Source of the DNA: Candidatus Iainarchaeum sp.
GTDB lineage: Archaea > Iainarchaeota > Iainarchaeia > Iainarchaeales > CSSED10-239
Direction: 5' to 3'
DNA length: 10,015 nt
NCBI GenBank assembly: GCA_003559395.1
Contig: PWLL01000020.1
Span: 1 to 10,015, forward strand
The position numbers and the translations under genes are program-made. Under the pieces are notes generated by a model. That model did not search any database and was not told where the DNA came from. It worked only from the letters and a program-made list of their open reading frames with translations. Shown here in pieces: positions 2 to 9,191 of the stretch (positions are counted from its first letter, which is position 1; every line of letters begins with the position of its first letter).

Positions 2-55
2 CACGACATGTATCCAGAAGACTATCCACATGACATGTATCCAGAAGATTTAGAT
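2..55 (+). repeat. Two copies of a 27-nt in-frame tandem repeat encoding HDMYPED(YP/LD)
   Basis: nt 2-22 (cacgacatgtatccagaagac) and nt 29-49 (catgacatgtatccagaagat) match at 19 of 21 positions with a 27-nt period. The repeat touches the window edge and may continue upstream. Confidence 0.75.
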
Positions 56-883
56 GTTGAAGATACAAGACAAACAATCTCAGAACAAGCAAGATATCAA
101 ATAACAAGACCAGGATTACAAATAAGAATGATACAACTAGAAAACACAATCAATTTGAAAATAAAAGAACTAGAAACAATAATAAATAAACTTTATGAAG
201 AAGAAGTTATTTTTGACGATGAATTTCTTAAAGAACAACTTTCTAGTCTTTTAGTTTTAAGAGAATATGTTCTAGAAAATAGAGAATATGAAGAAGAAAT
301 TCATGAATTTTCTAATTTAAGACAAAGACTCTCAAATACTATTTCTGAAACAAGAGAATATCTTAGAGAAGATATTGCTGAAAATGTAAAAGAAATGGTA
401 AAAGAAGATATTTTAGAAAAAAGAAACAATTTTAGAGAAGAAACTGCTTTAAAAAATAGAGACCGGTTTAGAAATTTAGCTCATGAGCATAATCTTCAAA
501 TAAGAGAAGAAGTTGTTCAACCTGTTATAGAAGAAATAAGAGCTGGTGTTGCTCAAAGAGTTTCACAAAGAGTACAAGAAATAGATGTTGAAGAAAGAAC
601 ACGGGTTGTTGGACAAATAATTTCAGAAGTTGCAAGAGAAAATAAACAAATCGCAATAAACGAAGCAAAACAAAGAATCGCACAAGCAACTATGATTCCT
701 CAAGCTTATAAAAATGAAATCAGAAGCCAAAGACAACAAGAAGAAACTAGAGTCAGACAAGAGATACTAGATACTTTTAGACAACAAGAAAGAAGAGTTT
801 CTGTTGACCCAGAAATTAAAGATGAGATCTTTGAAAGAATAAGACAAGAAAGAGCAAATATAAGAAATGAGGTGGTAGAATGA
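8..883 (+). CDS. Highly charged (E/R/Q/I-rich) predicted coiled-coil protein of unknown function; possibly 5'-truncated by the window edge
   Basis: 291-codon ORF on the purine-rich sense strand. The frame is already open at nt 2 (His-Asp before the first Met), and a tandem repeat sits at the edge, so the true start may lie upstream. Long heptad-like charged stretches (IREEV, IRNEVV, RQQEETRVRQEIL). No TM segment or catalytic motif recognised. The stop overlaps the next start (ATGA at 880-883). Confidence 0.7.
   Translation: MYPEDYPHDMYPEDLDVEDTRQTISEQARYQITRPGLQIRMIQLENTINLKIKELETIINKLYEEEVIFDDEFLKEQLSSLLVLREYVLENREYEEEIHEFSNLRQRLSNTISETREYLREDIAENVKEMVKEDILEKRNNFREETALKNRDRFRNLAHEHNLQIREEVVQPVIEEIRAGVAQRVSQRVQEIDVEERTRVVGQIISEVARENKQIAINEAKQRIAQATMIPQAYKNEIRSQRQQEETRVRQEILDTFRQQERRVSVDPEIKDEIFERIRQERANIRNEVVE
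869..875 (+). promoter_or_regulatory. Shine-Dalgarno-like site GAGGTGG for the 880 ORF
   Basis: GAGGTG matches the canonical SD extension GGAGGTGA. It ends 5 nt before the ATG at 880, inside the 3' end of the upstream CDS, which suggests translational coupling. Confidence 0.55.
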
Positions 884-1146
884 GTGATCTTGAAGGAGTT
901 TATAAAAAACCAAAAATAAATAAAGTTTTGATCATTGTTCTTATTGCTATTGTTGTTGCAGTTGTTTTAATCTTGTTAATTCCAAGAGCTGAAACACCAA
1001 CAGAAACAGGAGAGATAGATCCCATAGATGAACCGACTGAAGAACTAACAGACACAGAAATTAATGATTTAGAACAAGAACTTCACGAAGACTTTTCAAT
1101 AGATGAAGATGATGAGTTTTTGGATTCAGAAGACTTTTTTGAATAA
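880..1146 (+). CDS. Small single-pass membrane protein with a strongly acidic C-terminal tail, function unknown
   Basis: 88-aa ORF. It has a basic N-terminus (KKPKINK), one hydrophobic helix (VLIIVLIAIVVAVVLILLI), then a D/E/T-rich tail (EIDPIDEPTEELTDTE...DEDDEFLDSEDFFE). It shares a 4-nt ATGA overlap with the upstream gene and has an SD-like site. Confidence 0.7.
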   Translation: MSDLEGVYKKPKINKVLIIVLIAIVVAVVLILLIPRAETPTETGEIDPIDEPTEELTDTEINDLEQELHEDFSIDEDDEFLDSEDFFE

Positions 1147-1160
1147 AAAGTCTTTTTTTA
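1128..1160 (+). terminator. AU-rich hairpin plus T7 tract overlapping the stop codon of the 880 ORF; possible weak or partial terminator or RNA stability element
   Basis: agacttttt (1131-1139) pairs perfectly with aaaagtct (1145-1153) around a 5-nt loop, and the stem can extend by 2-3 pairs. ttttttt follows at 1154-1160. The stem has only 2 G-C pairs, and the next gene with its own SD starts 23 nt later. Confidence 0.3.
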
Positions 1161-1168
1161 TGTTTAAA

Positions 1169-1173
1169 AGGAG
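1169..1173 (+). promoter_or_regulatory. Shine-Dalgarno site AGGAG for the thioredoxin-like gene
   Basis: AGGAG lies 9 nt upstream of the ATG at 1183. Confidence 0.65.
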
Positions 1174-1182
1174 TTACATAAT

Positions 1183-1740
1183 ATGTCAAAAAGAAAAATA
1201 AATAAAAAGAAAAAAGAAAAAAGAGATGTTACAAATATTTTATATTTTGGAATCTTAGTTGCATTTATTGCAATTGTCTTAATATTAGCAATAAGACTAA
1301 CTAAAAGTTCACCAGAAACTTTTGAAGAAAATATAGACTCAGGCCAAATTTTTACTCAAACAGATAGTGATCAACTTGAGCCTGGACAAAAAATTGATGC
1401 TGAAGATAAATTGTCATCAGGATATGAAGTTGATGTACATTATGCTTATTCAGATGGATGTCCTTTTTGTACACAACAACAAAGATTTATGGATTCTTGG
1501 GAAGAAAAATATCCAACAGTAACAATATATAAATATAACGCACAAAGTTCAGAAGAAATGCAAACCTTCTTACAACTAGCAGAAACTTACGGAGAGTCTC
1601 CAAGAGGCGTACCAGTAACTATTATTGCAGATCAATATTGGTCTGGTTTTAGTGAAGAAAGAACTGGCAAAGCTATGGAAAACACTATAGAATATTGTTT
1701 AGTAAATGAATGTGAAGATCCTTTAGATAGACTAAACTAA
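1183..1740 (+). CDS. Membrane-anchored thioredoxin/glutaredoxin-fold thiol-disulfide oxidoreductase (CPFC active site), predicted to face outside the cell
   Basis: 185-aa ORF. It has a Lys-rich N-terminus and one TM helix (ILYFGILVAFIAIVLILAI), which suggests an N-in signal anchor. The soluble domain carries DGCPFC (a CxxC redox motif) and RGVPVTII about 50 residues later, in the position of the thioredoxin-fold cis-Pro loop. A second Cys pair, CLVNEC, lies near the C-terminus. A strong SD precedes it. Confidence 0.8.
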   Translation: MSKRKINKKKKEKRDVTNILYFGILVAFIAIVLILAIRLTKSSPETFEENIDSGQIFTQTDSDQLEPGQKIDAEDKLSSGYEVDVHYAYSDGCPFCTQQQRFMDSWEEKYPTVTIYKYNAQSSEEMQTFLQLAETYGESPRGVPVTIIADQYWSGFSEERTGKAMENTIEYCLVNECEDPLDRLN

Positions 1741-1898
1741 TAGTTCATCTTTTGTCTTTCAAAAAAATCAGAAGTATATTTTTTTTTTTTAATATCTTCT
1801 TCTTTTTCTTGTTTTAGTTTTATTGCTTCTTCACATTTTTCACAATAAAGATTGTAGTTTACAATCATTTTTTCACATCTTAGACATCTGTTTACCAT
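1737..1898 (-). CDS. Small zinc-ribbon-like protein (53 aa, CxxC-x10-CxxC), absent from the supplied ORF track
   Basis: My translation is MVNRCLRCEKMIVNYNLYCEKCEEAIKLKQEKEEDIKKKKYTSDFFERQKMNY. The ATG at 1898 lies 7 nt after the lysS stop and is preceded by the same AAAAGTGA motif found upstream of the other minus-strand genes. Four Cys in a paired CxxC pattern are unlikely by chance in this Cys-poor, AT-rich sequence. The TAG stop at 1737-1739 overlaps the convergent gene's end by 4 nt. Confidence 0.6.
   Translation of the reverse strand: MVNRCLRCEKMIVNYNLYCEKCEEAIKLKQEKEEDIKKKKYTSDFFERQKMNY
1779..1790 (+). terminator. T12 tract about 39 nt downstream of the plus-strand operon; possible oligo-T termination signal
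   Basis: Twelve uninterrupted T on the plus strand follow the stop at 1738-1740. No convincing G-C stem precedes it. The same bases encode KKKK of the minus-strand zinc-ribbon ORF, so it may simply be coding sequence. Confidence 0.25.
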
Positions 1899-1905
1899 TT
1901 TGTTT

Positions 1906-3369
1906 TCACTTTTCTTCTTTTAATAATGGAAATAAGATAACATCTCTTATAGTTGAAGCGTTTGTAAACATCATAACAAACCTATCAATTCCAAATCCTA
2001 TTCCATATGCAGGAGGCATTCCATATTTTAAAGCTTCTATAAAGTCTTTATCAATAGGATGATTTTCTCCTTTTTCTTTATCATTATCTTTTTGAGCAAT
2101 CATTTGTTTTTCTTGAAAGTCTGGATCGTTTAGCTCACTATATATGTTTCCTATCTCCCAACCATTAACATATGGTTCGTCTCTTTCTATAAGTTCTTTG
2201 TCTTTTCTGTGTATCTTACATAAAGGAGTTAGTTCTTTTGGATGGTCGGTTATATGTATTGGTCCTGATAAATGAGACTCACAAAAATGTTCAAACAAAG
2301 CATTTATTAAAAGCCCACGACTTTGTGGAGATGGCATTTCTATATTGTTTTCTTGAATTGTTTCTTTTAGTTGTTCTTCTGTTAAAGAACGAACATCAAT
2401 ATCAGCATATTCTTTAATCGCATCAATCATTGATAGTTTTTTCCAAGGTCTCTTAAAGTCAAATTCTTTATCCTGATAGGTTATTTTGGTTGTACCATAT
2501 AACTCAAGTGCAACTTTTTCATGAAGTTCTTCTATTAAATCCATTGCATCGTTATAATCTTTAAAAACTTCATAACATTCAAGCATAGTAAACTCAGGAT
2601 TGTGTGATTTGTCTACTCCTTCGTTTCTAAAGTTCTTACATATAGTAAACACTTTCTCAAAACCACCCACTAGCAGTCTTTTAAGATACAGCTCAGGTGA
2701 TATTGACAAGTATAACGGTCGTTTCCACACATATGCTTCAGTCACAAAAGGTCTAGCATTTGCTCCTCCATAAAGTGGTTGTAACAATGGTGTTTCTACT
2801 TCTATAAATCCTTTATCTTTTAGTATTTTTCTTAAAACATCTATTATTTTTTCTCGTTTTATAAAAATGTCTTTTACTTCTTTATTTATCATTAAGTCTA
2901 GGTGTTTTTTTCTATATTTTATTTCTTGATCCTGTAATCCATGATATTTTTCAGGCAAAGGCAAGAAACATTTTGACAGGAAAGTAATATCTTGTGCTTC
3001 AATAGATATTTCATTTGTTTTTGTTTTAAATATCTTTCCAGACACGCCAATAATATCTCCTTGATCAAGTTTTTTAACAAGCTCAAACATCTTTGTATCG
3101 TTTGATTTTACAACAATTTGTATTTTTCCTTGTTGATCGTGTAGATCAATAAACGCAATTTTTCCTAAGTTTCTTATAATAAAAATTCTTCCAGCAACAC
3201 TTGCTGTTTCTTCTGAGTAAGTGTTTGTTTCTAGGTCTTTGTGTTTTTTTTGTATATCTGAAGAAACATGTGTTCTCTTATAGCTATAAGGAAAAGGTTC
3301 GATATTGTTTTCTAAAAGAAAATTAAAGTTTTCTTTTCTTGATATTTCATATTCTTCTTGTCTTGACAT
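1906..3369 (-). CDS. lysS: Lysyl-tRNA synthetase, class II
   Basis: N-terminal OB-fold anticodon-binding signature (VAGRIFIIRNLGKIAFIDLHDQQGKIQIVV). Class II motif 1 region (GFIEVETPLLQP), motif 2 (FRNEGVDKSHNPEFTMLECY) and motif 3 (GIGFGIDRFVMMFTNASTIRDVILFP), plus the LysRS-typical KYHGLQDQEIKYRKKHLDL. The ORF track starts at a GTG at 3378. I prefer the ATG at 3369 (MSRQEEY...) because that GTG is part of the recurring GTGA upstream motif. Confidence 0.95.
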   Translation of the reverse strand: MSRQEEYEISRKENFNFLLENNIEPFPYSYKRTHVSSDIQKKHKDLETNTYSEETASVAGRIFIIRNLGKIAFIDLHDQQGKIQIVVKSNDTKMFELVKKLDQGDIIGVSGKIFKTKTNEISIEAQDITFLSKCFLPLPEKYHGLQDQEIKYRKKHLDLMINKEVKDIFIKREKIIDVLRKILKDKGFIEVETPLLQPLYGGANARPFVTEAYVWKRPLYLSISPELYLKRLLVGGFEKVFTICKNFRNEGVDKSHNPEFTMLECYEVFKDYNDAMDLIEELHEKVALELYGTTKITYQDKEFDFKRPWKKLSMIDAIKEYADIDVRSLTEEQLKETIQENNIEMPSPQSRGLLINALFEHFCESHLSGPIHITDHPKELTPLCKIHRKDKELIERDEPYVNGWEIGNIYSELNDPDFQEKQMIAQKDNDKEKGENHPIDKDFIEALKYGMPPAYGIGFGIDRFVMMFTNASTIRDVILFPLLKEEK

Positions 3370-3411
3370 ATTTATCACATTTTTTTTGTTTGGATATATA
3401 TAATATATATC
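3370..3411 (-). promoter_or_regulatory. lysS upstream region: TA-alternating tract, A8 run, GTGAT RBS-like motif
   Basis: The minus strand reads gatatatattatatatatccaaac-AAAAAAAA-t-GTGAT-aaat-ATG. The TA tract could be a -10/TATA-type promoter element. GTGAT matches the 3' part of the extended SD GGAGGTGAT. Confidence 0.4.
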
Positions 3412-3454
3412 AAAAATAATAAAAAGAGAGATGATATTTATAGAAACATCATCT
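3412..3454 (-). terminator. Hairpin plus oligo-U tracts between the giant gene and lysS
   Basis: A perfect 7-bp inverted repeat, agatgat (3429-3435) and atcatct (3448-3454), flanks a 12-nt loop and overlaps the giant gene's TGA. On the minus-strand transcript it is followed by CUCUUUUU and AUUAUUUUU. The stem is short and AU-rich. Confidence 0.4.
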
Positions 3455-6400
3455 TTTTTTTTTGTTTTTAAGCAAAACAGTATTTATAATATAGAAACAA
3501 GAAACAAAAAACAAAATATACATCATTAAACCAACAGTTGATGTTGGTGATAAAGGAATGTTAAAGCCATCTGTTCTTCTACCTGCTGCATCTGTGCCTA
3601 TGTTGAATACGTTTCCTGATGTTTTGCCTGTGACTTTTCCATCAGCGTCTGTTGAAAACAACATTCCGTCTCTAAAAGCTTGATTATAAGGAATCATCAT
3701 TCCATTTTCTGTATACCAGTTGCCTGTTTTTGGATCATACCAAAAACCTCCTTGTTGTCCTTGTGCAGAGGTTAATGTTTCTACGTCGTCGTTATATTTA
3801 AGCTTTGGTACACCATGTTCAGCACTTATATCAAAGTCATGTGAGGCTCCGTCTTCTGTTTGTATTCTGTATCCGTCTTCTAGATCAAAGATGTCTGTTA
3901 TTTTTTGATCATAGACTTCTCCTGTTTTTTTGTCAATAATTCTCATTCTTTGTTCACATTCTGGATAATCACTTATATAGAAAAGAATCGTTTTTGTAGG
4001 CGTATCAAACATTTGGAAAGGGCCTACATTTTCTAGAGCATTGTTCATTTTTTCAACATTTGCGTATGCTTGTGAGTTTGGATCATCACTAGTTGATGTT
4101 GCTTTAAAATCAAAAGCAATCTCATCGTCATCACATTCATTTTGTGCAGGTGTTGATGTAAGTTCTGCATCTAGGTCTTTTATATCTGCTCCACTTGTAA
4201 CGCTTGTATATTCGACCCACATAATATATGCGTTCTTTTCTCCACTATACACAAGTTGTCCTCTTTCAAATTGAACAGATATGTTTTTCCCAAGATTTAT
4301 TCTTTTACTTTCTACTTCTTCAATAGGAAACAATCTACTTGTTCGGTCACCATAAATAGACAATCGAGCACTTGTTCCTTCAGCTACTTGTCTTGGTGTT
4401 CCTTGTGCACTTATTTTTGTTGTTTGTGGATATACGTCATATTGTGTTGAAGGGTTGATTATGTTTGCAGATTTTACCGCACCAAGATATTCTGTTAGGT
4501 TTGTTGCTCCTCCATCTATTTCGTTTCCTGTTTGTTCATAATAGCCTTGTCTTATACAGTGCATAAAATCATTATCTTGAACAAAGAAATTACCATAAAC
4601 ATCCATTTCAAACAAAAGTTCTTCTGGATTGTCTGAAACAGGAATATAGGTCAGCATTTTTGGAATTATCTTTGCAGGAATTCCTAGGTTTGTTGCAACA
4701 AGTCTTACAAAATCTGAGTGATCGCTATCAATAATCTTGTTAATATTTCCGTCTTTGTCAATAAGGTTTAGTTCTCCTTTTTCTTTATCTATTTCTAAGC
4801 CTTCTTTTTTGTCTTCATCAATTAAGATTTCTTTTCCTTGATCGTTAAGGTTATTGGCTCTACATCTTGTATCAGGACCAAGTTCAAAGAAAAACAAACG
4901 ACCATCTAAGCTTGCATCTGTTCCAGCAGATGTAGAAAAGCTTGATTGAACGATTGCATGGTCTCTTAGATTTTTTTCTACAAACCCTTTTGCTTCTTGT
5001 GTTCCTGCACTTACTGTTTTTTCAAACTCTGTTCCTTTGGTTATGTTTTTTAATGTTCCTTCTATCCCATCAAGTCCTTGATCTACCATGTCTGCTACTT
5101 TATTTGTTGGATCTTCTTCTATTCTTTCATATTCTAAAGAGTTCATGAAAAAATGAGTGTAAAGTCCTTCTTGATCATCAACACATCCTTTTATTTGTGG
5201 CATAACTATTATTTGTTTAGGAAGCGTCATTAAGAGTGCTGGAGCAAGTAAAGGATTTGCTGGATGAGGTAAAGTCCAATAAGCTGCTCTTTCTGGTATT
5301 GTTAATGCTACTGCAAGTCTATAGTCTTTAGGTAAAGCCCAACCAACATTTATTCCACCAAGATTAAGTTCTCTTATTTTTTGTTCACAAGTATCTCCTT
5401 CTTGTCTTGCTTTTACAAGATTTATTTCTTCTTCTGATTTTTCTCCTTCATTTATTCCACTATAGTCTGTGTGGTGTGAAAAAGTAACTAGGTTTTGTCC
5501 TTTATTTTCATAGTTTTCTGGAGTTGTATTTTCTAAGATATAGTTTGATGTATTAAAGCCTCTAGGTACATAAAAGTTAATGTTTAGTTTTGCTGAAGGG
5601 TCAACATAGTTTGTTGTATCTTCATATTCAAATCTTTTTTCATTTTCTTTTATGGCTTCAAGTTGTGCTTCTCTATATTCATCAACAATTTCTTGAACTT
5701 CTTGTTGGTTATAGCCTGCATCAAGATATTGTTCTTTCATAATCTCAACTGTGGAGTCTAGGTTTGCAAGTTGATCTTGTGTTTTTCTTTCTTGAATATC
5801 TTGTCGTGTTATTGTTTGTTCGCTTTCTGAAGGAAATTGCATATATTCATTATACATGTCTGCTGATAGTCCTTCTAGACTTCTTTCTCTTGTTTGTTGT
5901 TCAATATAATCTGAACCAATGTTTATTCTACAATTGGTTCCACATCCTGTGTTTATTGTGTCTGTAAATAAAACTATGTTGTCTACAAGATCTCTTTTTA
6001 TTTTTCCTCTAAGCATATTATCTATTGATCTTTCTGCAGTAGCAATCAGTTGGAAGTCTGTATATTCTGCAGTAACCTCTAAACCAGTTTTAATTATTTT
6101 TGGAAATATAAATATTGCTGAGTTTAAAAACTTCATAAACAGGTCTCCTTGATCAGAACCATCATTTGCGAAAAAATCAATATATGCATCATCGTATATA
6201 GGCGGAGACATGCCGTGTGTAATATTTATTGCAGAATAAGATTCTGGAAGTCTATAAACGCTAAATTTATCTAGACCTAAAGGACTTAAAAACCCAACAT
6301 CTGCAAAACCTCTTTTTGTTTGCCAAAAAAGAAAGTTATAACCAAAGGCTTCCAAAGACTTTCCTGCAAAATCAAAAACATTATTTTGGGTTACAAATTG

Positions 6401-8647
6401 TTTCATTTTAAAATCTGCAAAACTTGTAGAGGCATAGTCAATAAATCCTTTGTTGTTTAAGTGTGTTTGTGTCATATCAACAGCACCTGCATAGTCATTT
6501 GTAATTGCATTTGACATTTTGTTAAAGTAGGTGTCTGAAACATTTATTGGGTCTAATAAATAATCGTCTAGATGTTCTGGTTTAATTATAGTTTCTATAG
6601 ATTGTGTGTTAAATTCAGGAAAACCAGTACCGTGCGTTATTTGACTTTTAAGACTTTCAAAATTTTGTGGTGTAACACTAACTGTTTGGGTCCCTATTTT
6701 TGCTTGAACAACACCACTTGGATTATTTTTTATAAAAGTTTCAATATCTGCTATTTTTGTAAATTGTTGAGGTGTTCCGCTTGGTACAGAAACTTCTGGC
6801 ATAATTACGTTTCTTTTTACAAAACTACCATCAGCTAATTGATAACTTACTTCTTTTGTTTTTGCTGTTGCTACATTAAACCCCTCATTAAATTTAAACA
6901 TTTTATCATTAATTTGTGTACTTACACCAGTTTTTGTTTGATATGAAGTTGAGAACACAGATTCTGGAAAAACTTCATGTCCAGGCACAGCAGCATCTAG
7001 ATGATCTGGGTTTATTTTTATTTTATTTGTTGAAAAATCAGCTGCAGTCATTGCTTTTTTAAGATTTACACCTTGTGCGTTTACACCATCTAACAAATCT
7101 TGATATGCTAACATCGCATCATTATAAGCATTAAATTCTTCAGGACTAAAACTTTTAAACATTTCTTTTGTGGTTTTTCCTTGTTGTTTTGCTGCAATTA
7201 TTTTGTTTTGTATAGTATTTACATGATCTAATTTCATTATTTCTGAGGCGTTTTCTTTTGCTAAACTAGCAAGCATATTTTCTTGATTTACAAGACTATA
7301 AAATACAGATTTTTGTTTAGATGTCATATCTTTGAAAAAATCAGGGTTGTTTATGATCTTATCACTAACTTCTCCTTTTCCTTTTTTTACTGCATCTCTA
7401 TAAATTTTCATTTTTTGATTAAGATTATTTTGTGCAATCATCTGCTCTCTCATTGTTTGGTTTTGAATACCCAAGATTGCACTACCATTTTCAGACATGT
7501 TTTTTACCATCTTAGCTCCTGCTCTTGATTTTCTTGCCGCAACAAAAGAACTTCCAACTGTTCTTTTTGTATCTAAGATAAGACGTGCTGGGTCTTTCAT
7601 AAGATTTTTTAAAAAAGTTGGTTTTATTTTATTTACAATTTTTGCGTAATTTGATTGAATACCAGGAACTCTCATAAGCTTTGCAGTTGTTGCTCCTAAA
7701 AGCACTCTTCCTGCACTAAAGACCATATCTGTTGAATAATATTGATTAAACATTTTATCAAATAAAGAATAAGAGTGAATAAAAGTATTTTCTGTACTTC
7801 CTGTTGTTGCCATGTTTGCAGAAAAACTACTTGTTTCTATAACATTTGATATTGCTTTGTCTGTTACAAGCTTTAAACCTTCTATATTCATTTCGTTTGT
7901 ATCTGTTGTTTCTAAAAGGTTTTTATAGTGATTCATTTCTGCAACAGATGCATCAGAAAAAGGACCAAGTTCAATATTATAATCTGTTTTGTCTCCAGTT
8001 ATAATTTCTCCTGCTGCTTCTCTTGCTTTGTTAACTCCAATAAAATCTAAAAGATCTTTTCCTACACTAGCCATTTCTGGAAAAAATCCTGTAAGTCCGT
8101 TTTGTCTAAACAAACCAAAGCTTCTTGTATAACATCCAGAAGCAGAATCTTCACATCTTCCTGTTCTTAAAGTTGAGTCTAGATCTAGTCCATACTGAAA
8201 AGAACCTTCACAGCTTTGTGCAAGTAAAGCAGATGTTTCTAAAGGATTCATTAATTTATCAGGCATCTCTACTTTTCCGGCCATATCTCCTGCAACTGCA
8301 TCTTGACCAGTAACCAAAAGTTCGTTTTGAATAAGTTCTTCTCTGTCTAGGGTTGCATCTATATTCGATTCAACTCTATCTATTTTAAAACCACTAACAA
8401 TAATGTCATTCCATATTTTTCTAACAGCTTCTTCTGGCAACCTAATTGTTGCACATCCATCTCCTCTGTTATAAACATAATCTAAATCACTTATGTCACT
8501 AAACATAAATGTACAACCAGATGGATCTTCTTTTTTTTCAGAGATTACTCTTGAAGGATCAATGTTTGCAGAAAAAACACTTCCTACAATCATTATTAAA
8601 AACAAAAATGACATCAATGGTCTTAGGTTTTTTATTTTATATCTCAT
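3449..8647 (-). CDS. Giant (1732 aa) secreted, C-terminally membrane-anchored surface protein of unknown family
   Basis: Uninterrupted 5.2-kb ORF in a stop-codon-rich AT-rich sequence. The N-terminus MRYKIKNLRPLMSFLFLIMIVGSVFSA-N looks like a signal peptide. The C-terminus has a TM helix (TVGLMMYILFFVSCFYIINTVLL) followed by KNKKKR. There are 13 Cys in the predicted ectodomain and many N-x-S/T sequons. No catalytic or repeat-family motif recognised. Confidence 0.9.
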   Translation of the reverse strand: MRYKIKNLRPLMSFLFLIMIVGSVFSANIDPSRVISEKKEDPSGCTFMFSDISDLDYVYNRGDGCATIRLPEEAVRKIWNDIIVSGFKIDRVESNIDATLDREELIQNELLVTGQDAVAGDMAGKVEMPDKLMNPLETSALLAQSCEGSFQYGLDLDSTLRTGRCEDSASGCYTRSFGLFRQNGLTGFFPEMASVGKDLLDFIGVNKAREAAGEIITGDKTDYNIELGPFSDASVAEMNHYKNLLETTDTNEMNIEGLKLVTDKAISNVIETSSFSANMATTGSTENTFIHSYSLFDKMFNQYYSTDMVFSAGRVLLGATTAKLMRVPGIQSNYAKIVNKIKPTFLKNLMKDPARLILDTKRTVGSSFVAARKSRAGAKMVKNMSENGSAILGIQNQTMREQMIAQNNLNQKMKIYRDAVKKGKGEVSDKIINNPDFFKDMTSKQKSVFYSLVNQENMLASLAKENASEIMKLDHVNTIQNKIIAAKQQGKTTKEMFKSFSPEEFNAYNDAMLAYQDLLDGVNAQGVNLKKAMTAADFSTNKIKINPDHLDAAVPGHEVFPESVFSTSYQTKTGVSTQINDKMFKFNEGFNVATAKTKEVSYQLADGSFVKRNVIMPEVSVPSGTPQQFTKIADIETFIKNNPSGVVQAKIGTQTVSVTPQNFESLKSQITHGTGFPEFNTQSIETIIKPEHLDDYLLDPINVSDTYFNKMSNAITNDYAGAVDMTQTHLNNKGFIDYASTSFADFKMKQFVTQNNVFDFAGKSLEAFGYNFLFWQTKRGFADVGFLSPLGLDKFSVYRLPESYSAINITHGMSPPIYDDAYIDFFANDGSDQGDLFMKFLNSAIFIFPKIIKTGLEVTAEYTDFQLIATAERSIDNMLRGKIKRDLVDNIVLFTDTINTGCGTNCRINIGSDYIEQQTRERSLEGLSADMYNEYMQFPSESEQTITRQDIQERKTQDQLANLDSTVEIMKEQYLDAGYNQQEVQEIVDEYREAQLEAIKENEKRFEYEDTTNYVDPSAKLNINFYVPRGFNTSNYILENTTPENYENKGQNLVTFSHHTDYSGINEGEKSEEEINLVKARQEGDTCEQKIRELNLGGINVGWALPKDYRLAVALTIPERAAYWTLPHPANPLLAPALLMTLPKQIIVMPQIKGCVDDQEGLYTHFFMNSLEYERIEEDPTNKVADMVDQGLDGIEGTLKNITKGTEFEKTVSAGTQEAKGFVEKNLRDHAIVQSSFSTSAGTDASLDGRLFFFELGPDTRCRANNLNDQGKEILIDEDKKEGLEIDKEKGELNLIDKDGNINKIIDSDHSDFVRLVATNLGIPAKIIPKMLTYIPVSDNPEELLFEMDVYGNFFVQDNDFMHCIRQGYYEQTGNEIDGGATNLTEYLGAVKSANIINPSTQYDVYPQTTKISAQGTPRQVAEGTSARLSIYGDRTSRLFPIEEVESKRINLGKNISVQFERGQLVYSGEKNAYIMWVEYTSVTSGADIKDLDAELTSTPAQNECDDDEIAFDFKATSTSDDPNSQAYANVEKMNNALENVGPFQMFDTPTKTILFYISDYPECEQRMRIIDKKTGEVYDQKITDIFDLEDGYRIQTEDGASHDFDISAEHGVPKLKYNDDVETLTSAQGQQGGFWYDPKTGNWYTENGMMIPYNQAFRDGMLFSTDADGKVTGKTSGNVFNIGTDAAGRRTDGFNIPLSPTSTVGLMMYILFFVSCFYIINTVLLKNKKKR

Positions 8648-8680
8648 ATACGTTTCACTTTTTTTAAAAATATATTAAAT
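8648..8680 (-). promoter_or_regulatory. Upstream region of the giant gene: TA-rich tract, A7 run, GTGAAA RBS-like motif
   Basis: The minus strand reads atttaatatattttt-AAAAAAA-GTGAAA-cgtat-ATG. It overlaps the last codons and stop of the upstream 175-aa ORF. Confidence 0.4.
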
Positions 8681-9191
8681 ATACTATTAAGGATAATAAT
8701 ACAGGAAAAAACAAATAAATAATAAAACTAATAATTATTGTAAAAGTTATTGACAACCATAACAAAAAATTATATTTATTTTTAGGAAGTTTCTTTTTTT
8801 TTATTTTTTGTAAACTTCTTTTTTTAAGATTGTCATATATTGCTGAAGTTATAAAGACTGCAATCAACAATAGTAAACTAAAGATTACCGCAACAAAGAA
8901 CAACTTAAAAATATTAAAGATTACTGCTTGAATAATAACATTAAAAGAATATCCTCCAAAACCATAGATTAAGGACGGCACAAAATATATTAATAACAAC
9001 AAAATATACACTATAGGAAAAGTTGTTAAAAAAACAGATCTTACAAAACTTTTCTTTTTTTTGTATCTTTGGTATCTTTTTGTAAGAAGGTTTGTTATTA
9101 ACACAAAGGGTAGGGCAAAGATACAACTATAGATGAACAATTTTATTACAAAGAACAAATGATTTAATATTGTTAAAGCTATTGAGCTCAT
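8664..9191 (-). CDS. Small polytopic membrane protein (175 aa, about 4-5 TM segments), function unknown
   Basis: Hydrophobic segments alternate with Lys/Arg-rich loops (TKRYQRYKKKKSFVR; NLKKRSLQKIKKKKLPKNKYN), consistent with positive-inside topology. The plus strand here is full of stops. The ATG is preceded by A7-c-GTGAAT. The ORF ends 16 nt before the giant gene's start. Confidence 0.7.
   Translation of the reverse strand: MSSIALTILNHLFFVIKLFIYSCIFALPFVLITNLLTKRYQRYKKKKSFVRSVFLTTFPIVYILLLLIYFVPSLIYGFGGYSFNVIIQAVIFNIFKLFFVAVIFSLLLLIAVFITSAIYDNLKKRSLQKIKKKKLPKNKYNFLLWLSITFTIIISFIIYLFFPVLLSLIVYLIYF

Follow-up and report, generated by a model that had tools for sequence, protein, structure and literature searches.

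A conserved giant surface protein of Iainarchaeota encoded beside a type IV pilus-like gene cluster

According to predictions by Makarova, Koonin and Albers (2016; PMC4858521), large accessory proteins of two kinds are encoded in many type IV pilus loci of archaea: 'S-layer-like' proteins with a single C-terminal transmembrane (TM) segment and conserved cysteines, for example arCOG05471, and adhesins with signal peptides, some of which have the DUF2341 domain that is also found in PilY1. In DPANN archaea, pilus loci consisting of 'dark matter' genes have been described (Makarova et al., 2019; PMC6393860). How does a giant surface protein from a DPANN lineage, Iainarchaeota (Diapherotrites), compare with these? 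The protein in question is encoded on a stretch of 10015 nucleotides from Candidatus Iainarchaeum sp. (contig PWLL01000020.1), the whole of which is called the window here, and its gene, located at 3449..8647 on the minus strand, begins with ATG, encodes 1732 aa followed by a stop codon, and occupies 52% of the window, as seen from the list of open reading frames (ORFs) and the translation. Because members of its family are almost always found beside a type IV pilus cluster, this giant protein is most likely an accessory of a pilus or envelope apparatus. More specifically, we suppose with a probability of about one half that it serves a lineage-specific type IV pilus-like machine as an extracellular accessory subunit anchored in the membrane, a proposal made from sequence comparison. 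An earlier note on the same DNA, made from its letters only, had kept an S-layer-type protein and a contact-dependent effector as equally open alternatives to a host-attachment protein, and the conserved linkage to the pilus cluster narrows these toward a pilus or envelope accessory role.

The closest counterparts are the proteins of the arCOG05471 type, to which the giant can be likened by description, not by sequence homology. Both are large, reside in a pilus locus, have a signal peptide, a single C-terminal TM segment and conserved cysteines, and have functions that are predicted only. The arCOG05471-type proteins come from Thermoproteales, Thaumarchaea and Euryarchaea, whereas the giant family is confined to DPANN archaea of the Iainarchaeota type; the giant also differs in having a dedicated partner with four TM segments and a motif [FL]N[IL]PxxPE in front of its anchor. 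By description, the family fits the kind of pilus-locus accessory described in 2016, and no published account of it as a family was found in the literature searched. Another comparison is with PilY1/PilC of the bacterial type IVa systems and with methanococcal DUF2341 proteins, which are likewise large non-pilin proteins with a Sec-type signal peptide encoded beside about four minor-pilin-like genes. The giant further recalls PilY1/PilC in its beta-rich C-terminal half, in non-significant fold matches to propellers, and in an acidic D/N/G-rich loop that is reminiscent of Ca-binding sites, a likeness that we infer from its residues. In contrast to PilY1/PilC, it has no match to the PilY1/Neisseria_PilC or DUF2341 models of Pfam, has no vWA domain, and has a C-terminal TM anchor, which PilY1 lacks.

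The argument for a pilus-related function starts from the gene neighbourhood, which was counted with phmmer over the family loci (designated L001, L002 and so on where one has to be singled out). Two neighbours of the giant gene are present in the window itself:

8664..9191, minus strand: membrane protein of 175 aa with four TM segments, ending 16 nt upstream of the giant's start codon
9330..10015, plus strand (divergent): protein rich in lysine and glutamate (K/E-rich), with PRRxRRFYR at its N-terminus, truncated where the contig ends (seen in translation; homologues in most loci)

The four-TM gene lies directly upstream of the giant gene on the same strand in 37 of the 38 loci that include the giant's N-terminus. 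The gap between the two genes is 3-16 nt, which suggests that they form an operon. The protein matches no family in Pfam or NCBIfam and has no conserved polar or catalytic residues, so that it is not an obvious enzyme; a role as a dedicated sortase or protease was considered and rejected for the same lack of conserved polar residues. Longer related contigs extend the picture past the contig end of the window: a gene for a polytopic protein of 727-784 aa precedes six to eight genes for small prepilin-type proteins, after which stand the K/E-rich gene, in the opposite orientation, the small TM gene and the giant. In about 27 loci, four pilin-like families form a block at 2-5.5 kb upstream of the giant; in about 28 of 30 informative loci the block is adjacent to the giant, usually accompanied by a TadC-like platform protein and in some loci by a T2SSE ATPase. 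The K/E-rich gene, whose product is probably cytoplasmic, stands between this block and the small TM gene, and is divergent from the unit of small TM gene and giant in most loci with enough upstream sequence. In L041 the pilin block is found downstream of the giant, together with ATPase and platform genes, and is still adjacent to it; thus, the linkage has survived a rearrangement. Moreover, the same gene order surrounds the most diverged members, at about 15% identity, as seen at the sequence level in L050 and by gene sizes only in L051. A linkage that resists rearrangement over 15-60% identity is good evidence that the giant is functionally connected with a type IV pilus-like system.

The cluster shows several hallmarks of such a system. 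In L030 it is headed by a T2SSE ATPase at 26-1648 (PF00437, 63.9 bits against a cut-off of 24.9, E=1.4e-17), homologues of which head the cluster in L024 and L025 and stand beside the platform gene in the downstream cluster of L041. The polytopic protein is a putative TadC-like platform protein; its match to Pfam T2SSF is weak (18.7-19.1 bits, below the cut-off of 25.2, E of about 1.5e-3), its homologue in L050 has a 'faint' T2SSF match on record, and hhalign aligned its aa 165-323 with a protein that has a significant T2SSF match (probability 76.9%, E=2.1e-5). Class III-like N-termini, in which K/R-G/A-↓-Q/Y (the arrow marks the cleavage site) is followed by a hydrophobic helix, as in KKGQAF, were found in 18/26, 27/33, 26/31, 18/27, 12/12 and 18/18 members of six pilin-like families by a pattern heuristic, not by FlaFind, applied to ORFs that begin at the first possible start codon. 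Over-extension of the N-terminus is visible in many of the members that were missed, and several in the pil178 group belong to a different protein that is not pilin-like. As a separate observation, one of the pilin-like families (family B; L001 6543-7271, L030 6624-7262, and orthologues) starts with M-[IL]-[EG]-F-[TSA]-L-S-K and a hydrophobic helix without a basic n-region, which recalls bacterial type IV pilins, whose mature N-terminus is G↓FTLxE, and not the usual archaeal K/R-G↓Q. No prepilin peptidase (FlaK/PibD) was seen within the 10-kb flanks. Downstream of the giant there is a class II lysyl-tRNA synthetase (LysRS) gene in the window and its clade, and a PAC2-like gene in the other clade.

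Some further genes were observed around the family loci. A second and more canonical pilus-like set, with a T2SSE ATPase (E=2.4e-35) and two T2SSF proteins, is present at 16556-19785 on the minus strand of L030 and has equivalents in L024 and L036; in L030 it is on the strand opposite to the giant and starts about 2 kb past the giant's stop codon, and in loci of the GC-rich clade its ATPase gene is about 7-11 kb from the giant's start. Small genes, of the toxin-antitoxin type or otherwise unrelated, are inserted in or beside the pilus/giant locus of several genomes, namely MazE/PemK in L050 (9315-9934), a PIN gene in L051 (3871-4242), and unassigned small ORFs in L014 (5032-5915) and L023 (3646-3876), and these leave the overall order of the locus unbroken. 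L043, the single long locus that has no pilin block, contains an ORF of 2718 aa upstream of the giant (16-8172, plus strand).

The earlier note had called the giant an orphan, and this turned out to be wrong. An initial search gave five full-length homologues of 1707-1759 aa with 37-64% identity, and a scan of one genome per species gave 41 loci with a best-segment identity of 24-51%. All the 41 loci are in archaeal metagenome-assembled genomes (MAGs), many of them labelled Candidatus Iainarchaeum, 'ainarchaeum' or Diapherotrites and one Micrarchaeota, which agrees with the DPANN lineage suggested in the note. An exhaustive HMMER search, its profile covering aa 760-1732, gave 194 clusters (at 50% identity) at E<=1e-3 and 96 at E<=1e-30, while word-indexed searches with the full alignment and with the alignment of the N-terminal domain added a single partial relative, P0007; the search with the N-terminal alignment revealed no relatives of the N-terminal Cys domain (aa 60-320) beyond the giant family. 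Full-length members have about 1330-1770 aa, and each assembly has one copy, a few copies being split over two contigs. More than 30 sibling genomes have an intact copy. Interruption of the gene in siblings was considered and rejected, as the only two cases are artefacts: in L021 a scaffold gap of 100 N (12985-13084), and in L020 a frameshift in a MAG of 1.5x coverage. The gap of L021 falls inside an acidic insertion with DAKENTED-like repeats, and its position suggests that this segment is hard to assemble and variable in length between strains.

The most distant members, GC-rich, Ala-rich and about 15% identical, retain the signal peptide, DxY[IL]x[IV][FY]AN, the C-terminal FxxDPxTGxW..NG, and 'NPLLALPSxPE' in front of a TM helix and a basic tail. 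Across the family, conservation is found in aa 60-320, in aa 760-910, and in aa 1020-1700 with LE, HH, TC1087, C1155VDxxEGYY, C1364, C1505, GPFQxF and C1564. Ten cysteines are invariant or nearly invariant across the family alignments, as are the acidic and histidine residues E1039, HH1058-1059, D1157 and H1603, and long motifs are nearly invariant among 68 full-length members. The best-conserved part is the C-terminal ectodomain with the anchor motif, whereas aa 321-759 are poorly conserved even among close relatives.

The topology of the giant was deduced from hydropathy and from conservation across homologues. Only two segments, aa 4-35 and aa 1697-1729, reach TM grade (Kyte-Doolittle scale, 19-residue window, threshold 1.2). 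The first has a basic n-region, a hydrophobic core and the sequence VFS↓AN that obeys the -3/-1 rule, as in a Sec-type signal peptide, and all of the 33 full-length homologues inspected have a similar N-terminus; the second is the C-terminal anchor segment, followed by the basic tail KNKKKR. Hydrophobic patches at aa 834-852 and aa 1130-1152 are below TM grade. Thus the giant is predicted to be a type I membrane protein with a Sec signal peptide, a large extracellular body of about 187 kDa that is acidic (pI, isoelectric point, 4.7), and a single C-terminal anchor. The earlier note had read a 1732-aa ORF with a signal peptide and a C-terminal anchor with a basic tail, and translation, hydropathy and conservation confirmed this. 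The parts of the protein can be listed as follows, all on the minus strand; the models are those of AlphaFold2 (AF2) and their confidence is given as pLDDT (predicted local distance difference test):

8570..8647: predicted Sec-type signal peptide, aa 1-26, cleavage VFS↓AN (hydropathy maximum over aa 4-35; 33 homologues with a similar start)
7688..8470: conserved N-terminal Cys domain, aa 60-320, with C65, C165, C172 and YSxFDKxFN (conservation profiles; AF2 pLDDT <50)
6371..7687: variable central region, aa 321-759 (22-33% identity even within the closest set of six homologues)
5918..6370: conserved block, aa 760-910, with YW, SxYxLP, the acidic loop YxDAYIDFFANxGSDQGDxF and CxxxC (C902, C906) (family alignments; counterpart DxYIxIxAN in the most distant members)
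5591..5917: acidic helical insertion, aa 911-1019 (gapped in most of a 33-sequence alignment; pI 4.1; pLDDT 71-84)
3566..5590: conserved C-terminal ectodomain, aa 1020-1694, mostly beta (family alignments, AF2)
3452..3565: C-terminal anchor with FNIPLSPTS, TM helix aa 1704-1726 and basic tail KNKKKR (alignment of C-termini, hydropathy)

The central region consists of a basic helical part rich in K, N and Q (aa 321-535) and a mixed beta/alpha part (aa 536-759), strands of which were modelled with pLDDT 60-84. The C-terminal ectodomain contains GPFQxFxT, IIDKxTGE and GSFWYDPxTGxWYxEN, and the cysteines C1087, C1155, C1364, C1505 and C1564. In the whole protein, cysteines are found at 45, 65, 146, 165 and 172, and then, after a Cys-free stretch, at 902, 906, 1087, 1155, 1262, 1364, 1505, 1564 and 1717; the first five and the Cys-free stretch up to 901 match exactly what the earlier note had read. 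Its description of composition stood as well: aa 320-535 are basic (pI 9.9; helices in the AF2 model with pLDDT 74-91), and the Pro-rich hydrophobic patch that it mentioned is the one peaking at aa 1130-1152. As to the acidic 'coiled-coil' segment of the note, aa 911-1019 are indeed acidic (pI 4.1) and helical, but they form an insertion confined to the subclade of the window and gapped in most of the family. Disulfide bonds may stabilise the body of the giant, and Ca2+ binding at the acidic DFFANxGSDQGD loop is suspected from its residues. The window also encodes, at 1183..1740 on the plus strand, a protein of 185 aa with an N-terminal TM helix, a thioredoxin-like CPFC motif and weak matches to Glutaredoxin and Thioredoxin_2. 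From its sequence it may act outside the cytoplasm as a thiol-disulfide oxidoreductase, and could then matter for the ten conserved cysteines of the giant; L001 and L002 have a protein of similar size in its place, as judged from position and size only.

The C-terminus of all members, [FL]N[IL]P[SL]xPE, a TM helix and a basic tail, resembles a sorting signal in its tripartite layout. Among all ORFs of 51 loci the motif [FL]N[IL]PxxPE is restricted to the giant family, and known CTERM sorting-domain models of NCBIfam gave no match to the giant at E<=1. A general sorting signal is unsupported, since no other ORF within the loci examined carries the motif.

What is the body of the protein made of? 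Pfam and NCBIfam gave nothing at a curated cut-off or at significance for the giant, and Pfam gave nothing significant for six distant members, for 31 diverse members (E<=0.01) or for consensus segments of the family (E<=10). No significant match was found among PDB sequences, either with the single protein or with a profile of 68 sequences. A match to TERT_C (17.7 bits against a cut-off of 27) was dismissed, as it falls in the low-complexity basic region. The PilY1/Neisseria_PilC domain of Pfam gave no match to the window protein (E<=0.1), to the 31 members (E<=0.01) or to the consensus segments (E<=10), no RHS/YD or toxin domain of Pfam was found in the window protein or in the 31 members, and S-layer domains of Pfam and NCBIfam and PGF-CTERM gave no match to the giant at E<=1. 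The giant thus has no confident match to a characterised family; the earlier note, too, could assign its body to none.

AF2 models were built for two halves of the protein, each on an alignment of six sequences, before the wider family was found, and they are poor, with a mean pLDDT of 51.5 for the C-terminal half and 46.9 for the other. Reasonable confidence was reached in three regions, which are the basic helical one, a beta/alpha one (aa about 596-726), and an all-beta one (aa about 1470-1640), with pLDDT 76-89 at aa about 1490-1630 (model residues about 561-700). Foldseek found no match at E<=1e-3 for both halves in PDB and for the C-terminal half in BFVD. The C-terminal half matched propellers best in PDB and BFVD alike (Kelch, WD40, FG-GAP and designed ones), with E values from 1.2e-3 to 3e-2 and TM-scores <=0.16 for a model of mean pLDDT 51.5, and the top matches of the N-terminal half in PDB are long helical bundles such as HBL-B, flagellin and ClyA types (E>=0.06). 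These propeller-like and ClyA/flagellin-like matches of the models are hints only. The earlier note had seen neither a tandem periodicity nor HExxH or another catalytic motif, and none was detected here: HExxH is absent from the sequence, and a profile self-comparison with 140-aa windows gave no internal repeats (best hhalign probability 14.8%). With 60-aa windows a beta-hairpin motif, phi-phi-D/E-x-x-T/K-G-x-phi-x-phi, recurs weakly and not significantly; the pairs are aa 1455-1472 with 1625-1642 (61%) and 1285-1318 with 1570-1597 (36%), hhalign probabilities that are uncorrected for 78 comparisons. This recurrence is compatible with a repetitive beta architecture.

If the giant is a pilus accessory as we suppose, how could it work? 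A conserved membrane-proximal half and a variable centre would fit an interaction that is kept at the membrane while the distal part is exposed. The membrane-proximal C-terminal half with its anchor would sit beside the TadC-like platform together with the co-transcribed four-TM partner, and would engage a complex of the four pilin-like proteins, or the envelope around the exit of the pilus. The N-terminal Cys domain and the fast-evolving centre would project outward for adhesion or for contacts with the envelope. Candidate roles of the giant would then be those of an adhesin, a stator, or a component for passage through the envelope, and a physical association with the pilus, with an adhesive, stator or conduit role, is what we infer from the locus.

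Several points weigh against this proposal. The gene neighbourhood is the sole evidence of function. The pilin block and the unit of partner and giant are not one operon, because a divergent gene lies between them, and the block is missing from L043, which has 10 kb of upstream sequence, and from L023, which has 5 kb with inserted genes. The window holds only the partner and the K/E-rich gene of the cluster, the pilus genes being seen in related contigs alone, and no ATPase is adjacent in the AT-rich clade to which the window belongs. The C-terminal TM anchor is unlike the build of known pilus-tip proteins such as PilY1, and the models (mean pLDDT 47-52, all fold matches at E>=1.2e-3) show no structural similarity to pilus components.

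The explanation that survives best beside a pilus accessory, though we regard it as unlikely, is that the giant is the main S-layer or envelope lattice protein of Iainarchaeota, anchored by its C-terminal TM segment, and that proximity to pilus genes reflects shared biogenesis of the envelope. A signal peptide with a C-terminal TM segment and a basic tail is the classical topology of archaeal surface-layer proteins, and the giant has it, as well as an acidic ectodomain of pI 4.7 and one copy per genome in a family recovered throughout related MAGs. Thus it shares type I topology, acidity, very large size and one gene per genome with S-layer proteins of the Haloferax Csg, tetrabrachion and SlaB types. 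In addition, analogous neighbours of pilus loci were termed 'S-layer-like' (Makarova et al., 2016; PMC4858521). However, the S-layer domains and PGF-CTERM mentioned above are lacking, and there is no enrichment of N-X-S/T sequons (11 were observed where 15.6 would be expected). Compared with the anchored S-layer glycoproteins, the giant is more conserved, which is high for an S-layer protein among 68 full-length members, and non-repetitive; its Cys-rich globular domains and non-repetitive body of 1500 aa are atypical, though still compatible with an S-layer protein. The tight, rearrangement-resistant linkage to pilin genes and the dedicated four-TM partner also argue against such a lattice protein.

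A bolder extension of the accessory proposal is, in our estimation, more doubtful still. The family might represent a component, new in structure and present throughout the phylum, by which an archaeal type IV pilus is coupled to the envelope; it would have folds without described relatives and would be processed at the sorting-like [FL]N[IL]PxxPE, a motif that would then be new as a sorting signal. It would act either as a membrane-anchored counterpart of the bacterial minor-pilin/PilY1 priming complex or as an envelope conduit or stator.

It seems rather improbable that the giant is a stand-alone adhesin or host-contact protein that binds a partner cell or a substrate independently of the pilus. 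Its DPANN origin, its giant extracellular body and its variable central region would suit this, and type IV pili and large surface proteins have been implicated in the attachment of episymbionts in other lineages (PMC9894109, PMC5498576). Comparable proteins are SPEARE proteins of Nanohaloarchaeota and laminin-G proteins of Micrarchaeota (Mia14; PMC5498576), which are also outsized and extracellular, come from archaea with small genomes, are often encoded near pilus genes, and have been proposed to act in cell contact. Such giants of other DPANN archaea and of the candidate phyla radiation (CPR), however, have recognisable protease, adhesion, nuclease or laminin G domains and are variable, whereas the present family has none of these and is conserved. 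No Ig, cadherin, laminin G or beta-helix domains or repeats were found in it. Strong conservation, not diversification, marks the greater part of the protein and its N-terminal domain as well, and each genome has a single copy, unlike the host-range adhesins, which often vary and occur in several copies. It is also to be noted that host attachment, to which the earlier note had appealed, is not a given, because Iainarchaeota are described in PMC10936187, which cites earlier work, as possibly free-living; host attachment by the giant is thus speculative.

Very improbable is a membrane-tethered extracellular enzyme or contact-dependent effector, such as a protease, a glycosidase or a toxin carrier: a few invariant or nearly invariant residues (E1039, HH1058-1059, D1157, H1603) and the weak YD-like recurrence of beta-hairpins could be taken in its favour, but there is no HExxH, searches of Pfam, NCBIfam and PDB, with 31 diverse members and the consensus segments among the queries, gave neither a catalytic family nor toxin/RHS, no conserved immunity-like gene follows (LysRS in one clade, PAC2-like in the other), and the C-terminus, far from polymorphic, is membrane-anchored and the most conserved part, so that the effector of the earlier note is unsupported.

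A few other observations concern the window itself, which is AT-rich (GC about 0.23-0.36) and contains no tRNA genes. At 8..883 on the plus strand it encodes a charged protein of 291 aa rich in E, R and Q, followed by an ORF of 88 aa at 880..1146 on the same strand; both have family matches only below threshold, and L001 and L002 have genes of similar size in their places, by position and size only. Between the giant's stop codon and the start of the LysRS gene, at about 3400-3447, an AT-rich inverted repeat, AGATGAT-N12-ATCATCT, can be read by eye, with a T-run after it and then a TATA-like stretch in front of LysRS; the inverted repeat was not flagged by a scan for bacterial-type promoters and terminators, which is uninformative for an archaeon.

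For Iainarchaeota, which are uncultured, the present analysis defines a surface protein that is conserved, has about 1330-1770 aa, occurs as a single copy and is linked to pilus genes, and the family, its motifs, the four-TM partner and the four-pilin block are concrete targets for metaproteomics, cryo-electron tomography and structure prediction. A family of about 190 clusters without known domains is also a good candidate for new folds. If the giant were indeed a component that couples the pilus to the envelope, it would determine how these ultrasmall archaea attach to surfaces or to partner cells, and the family may help to decide whether these DPANN archaea lead a host-attached or a free life.

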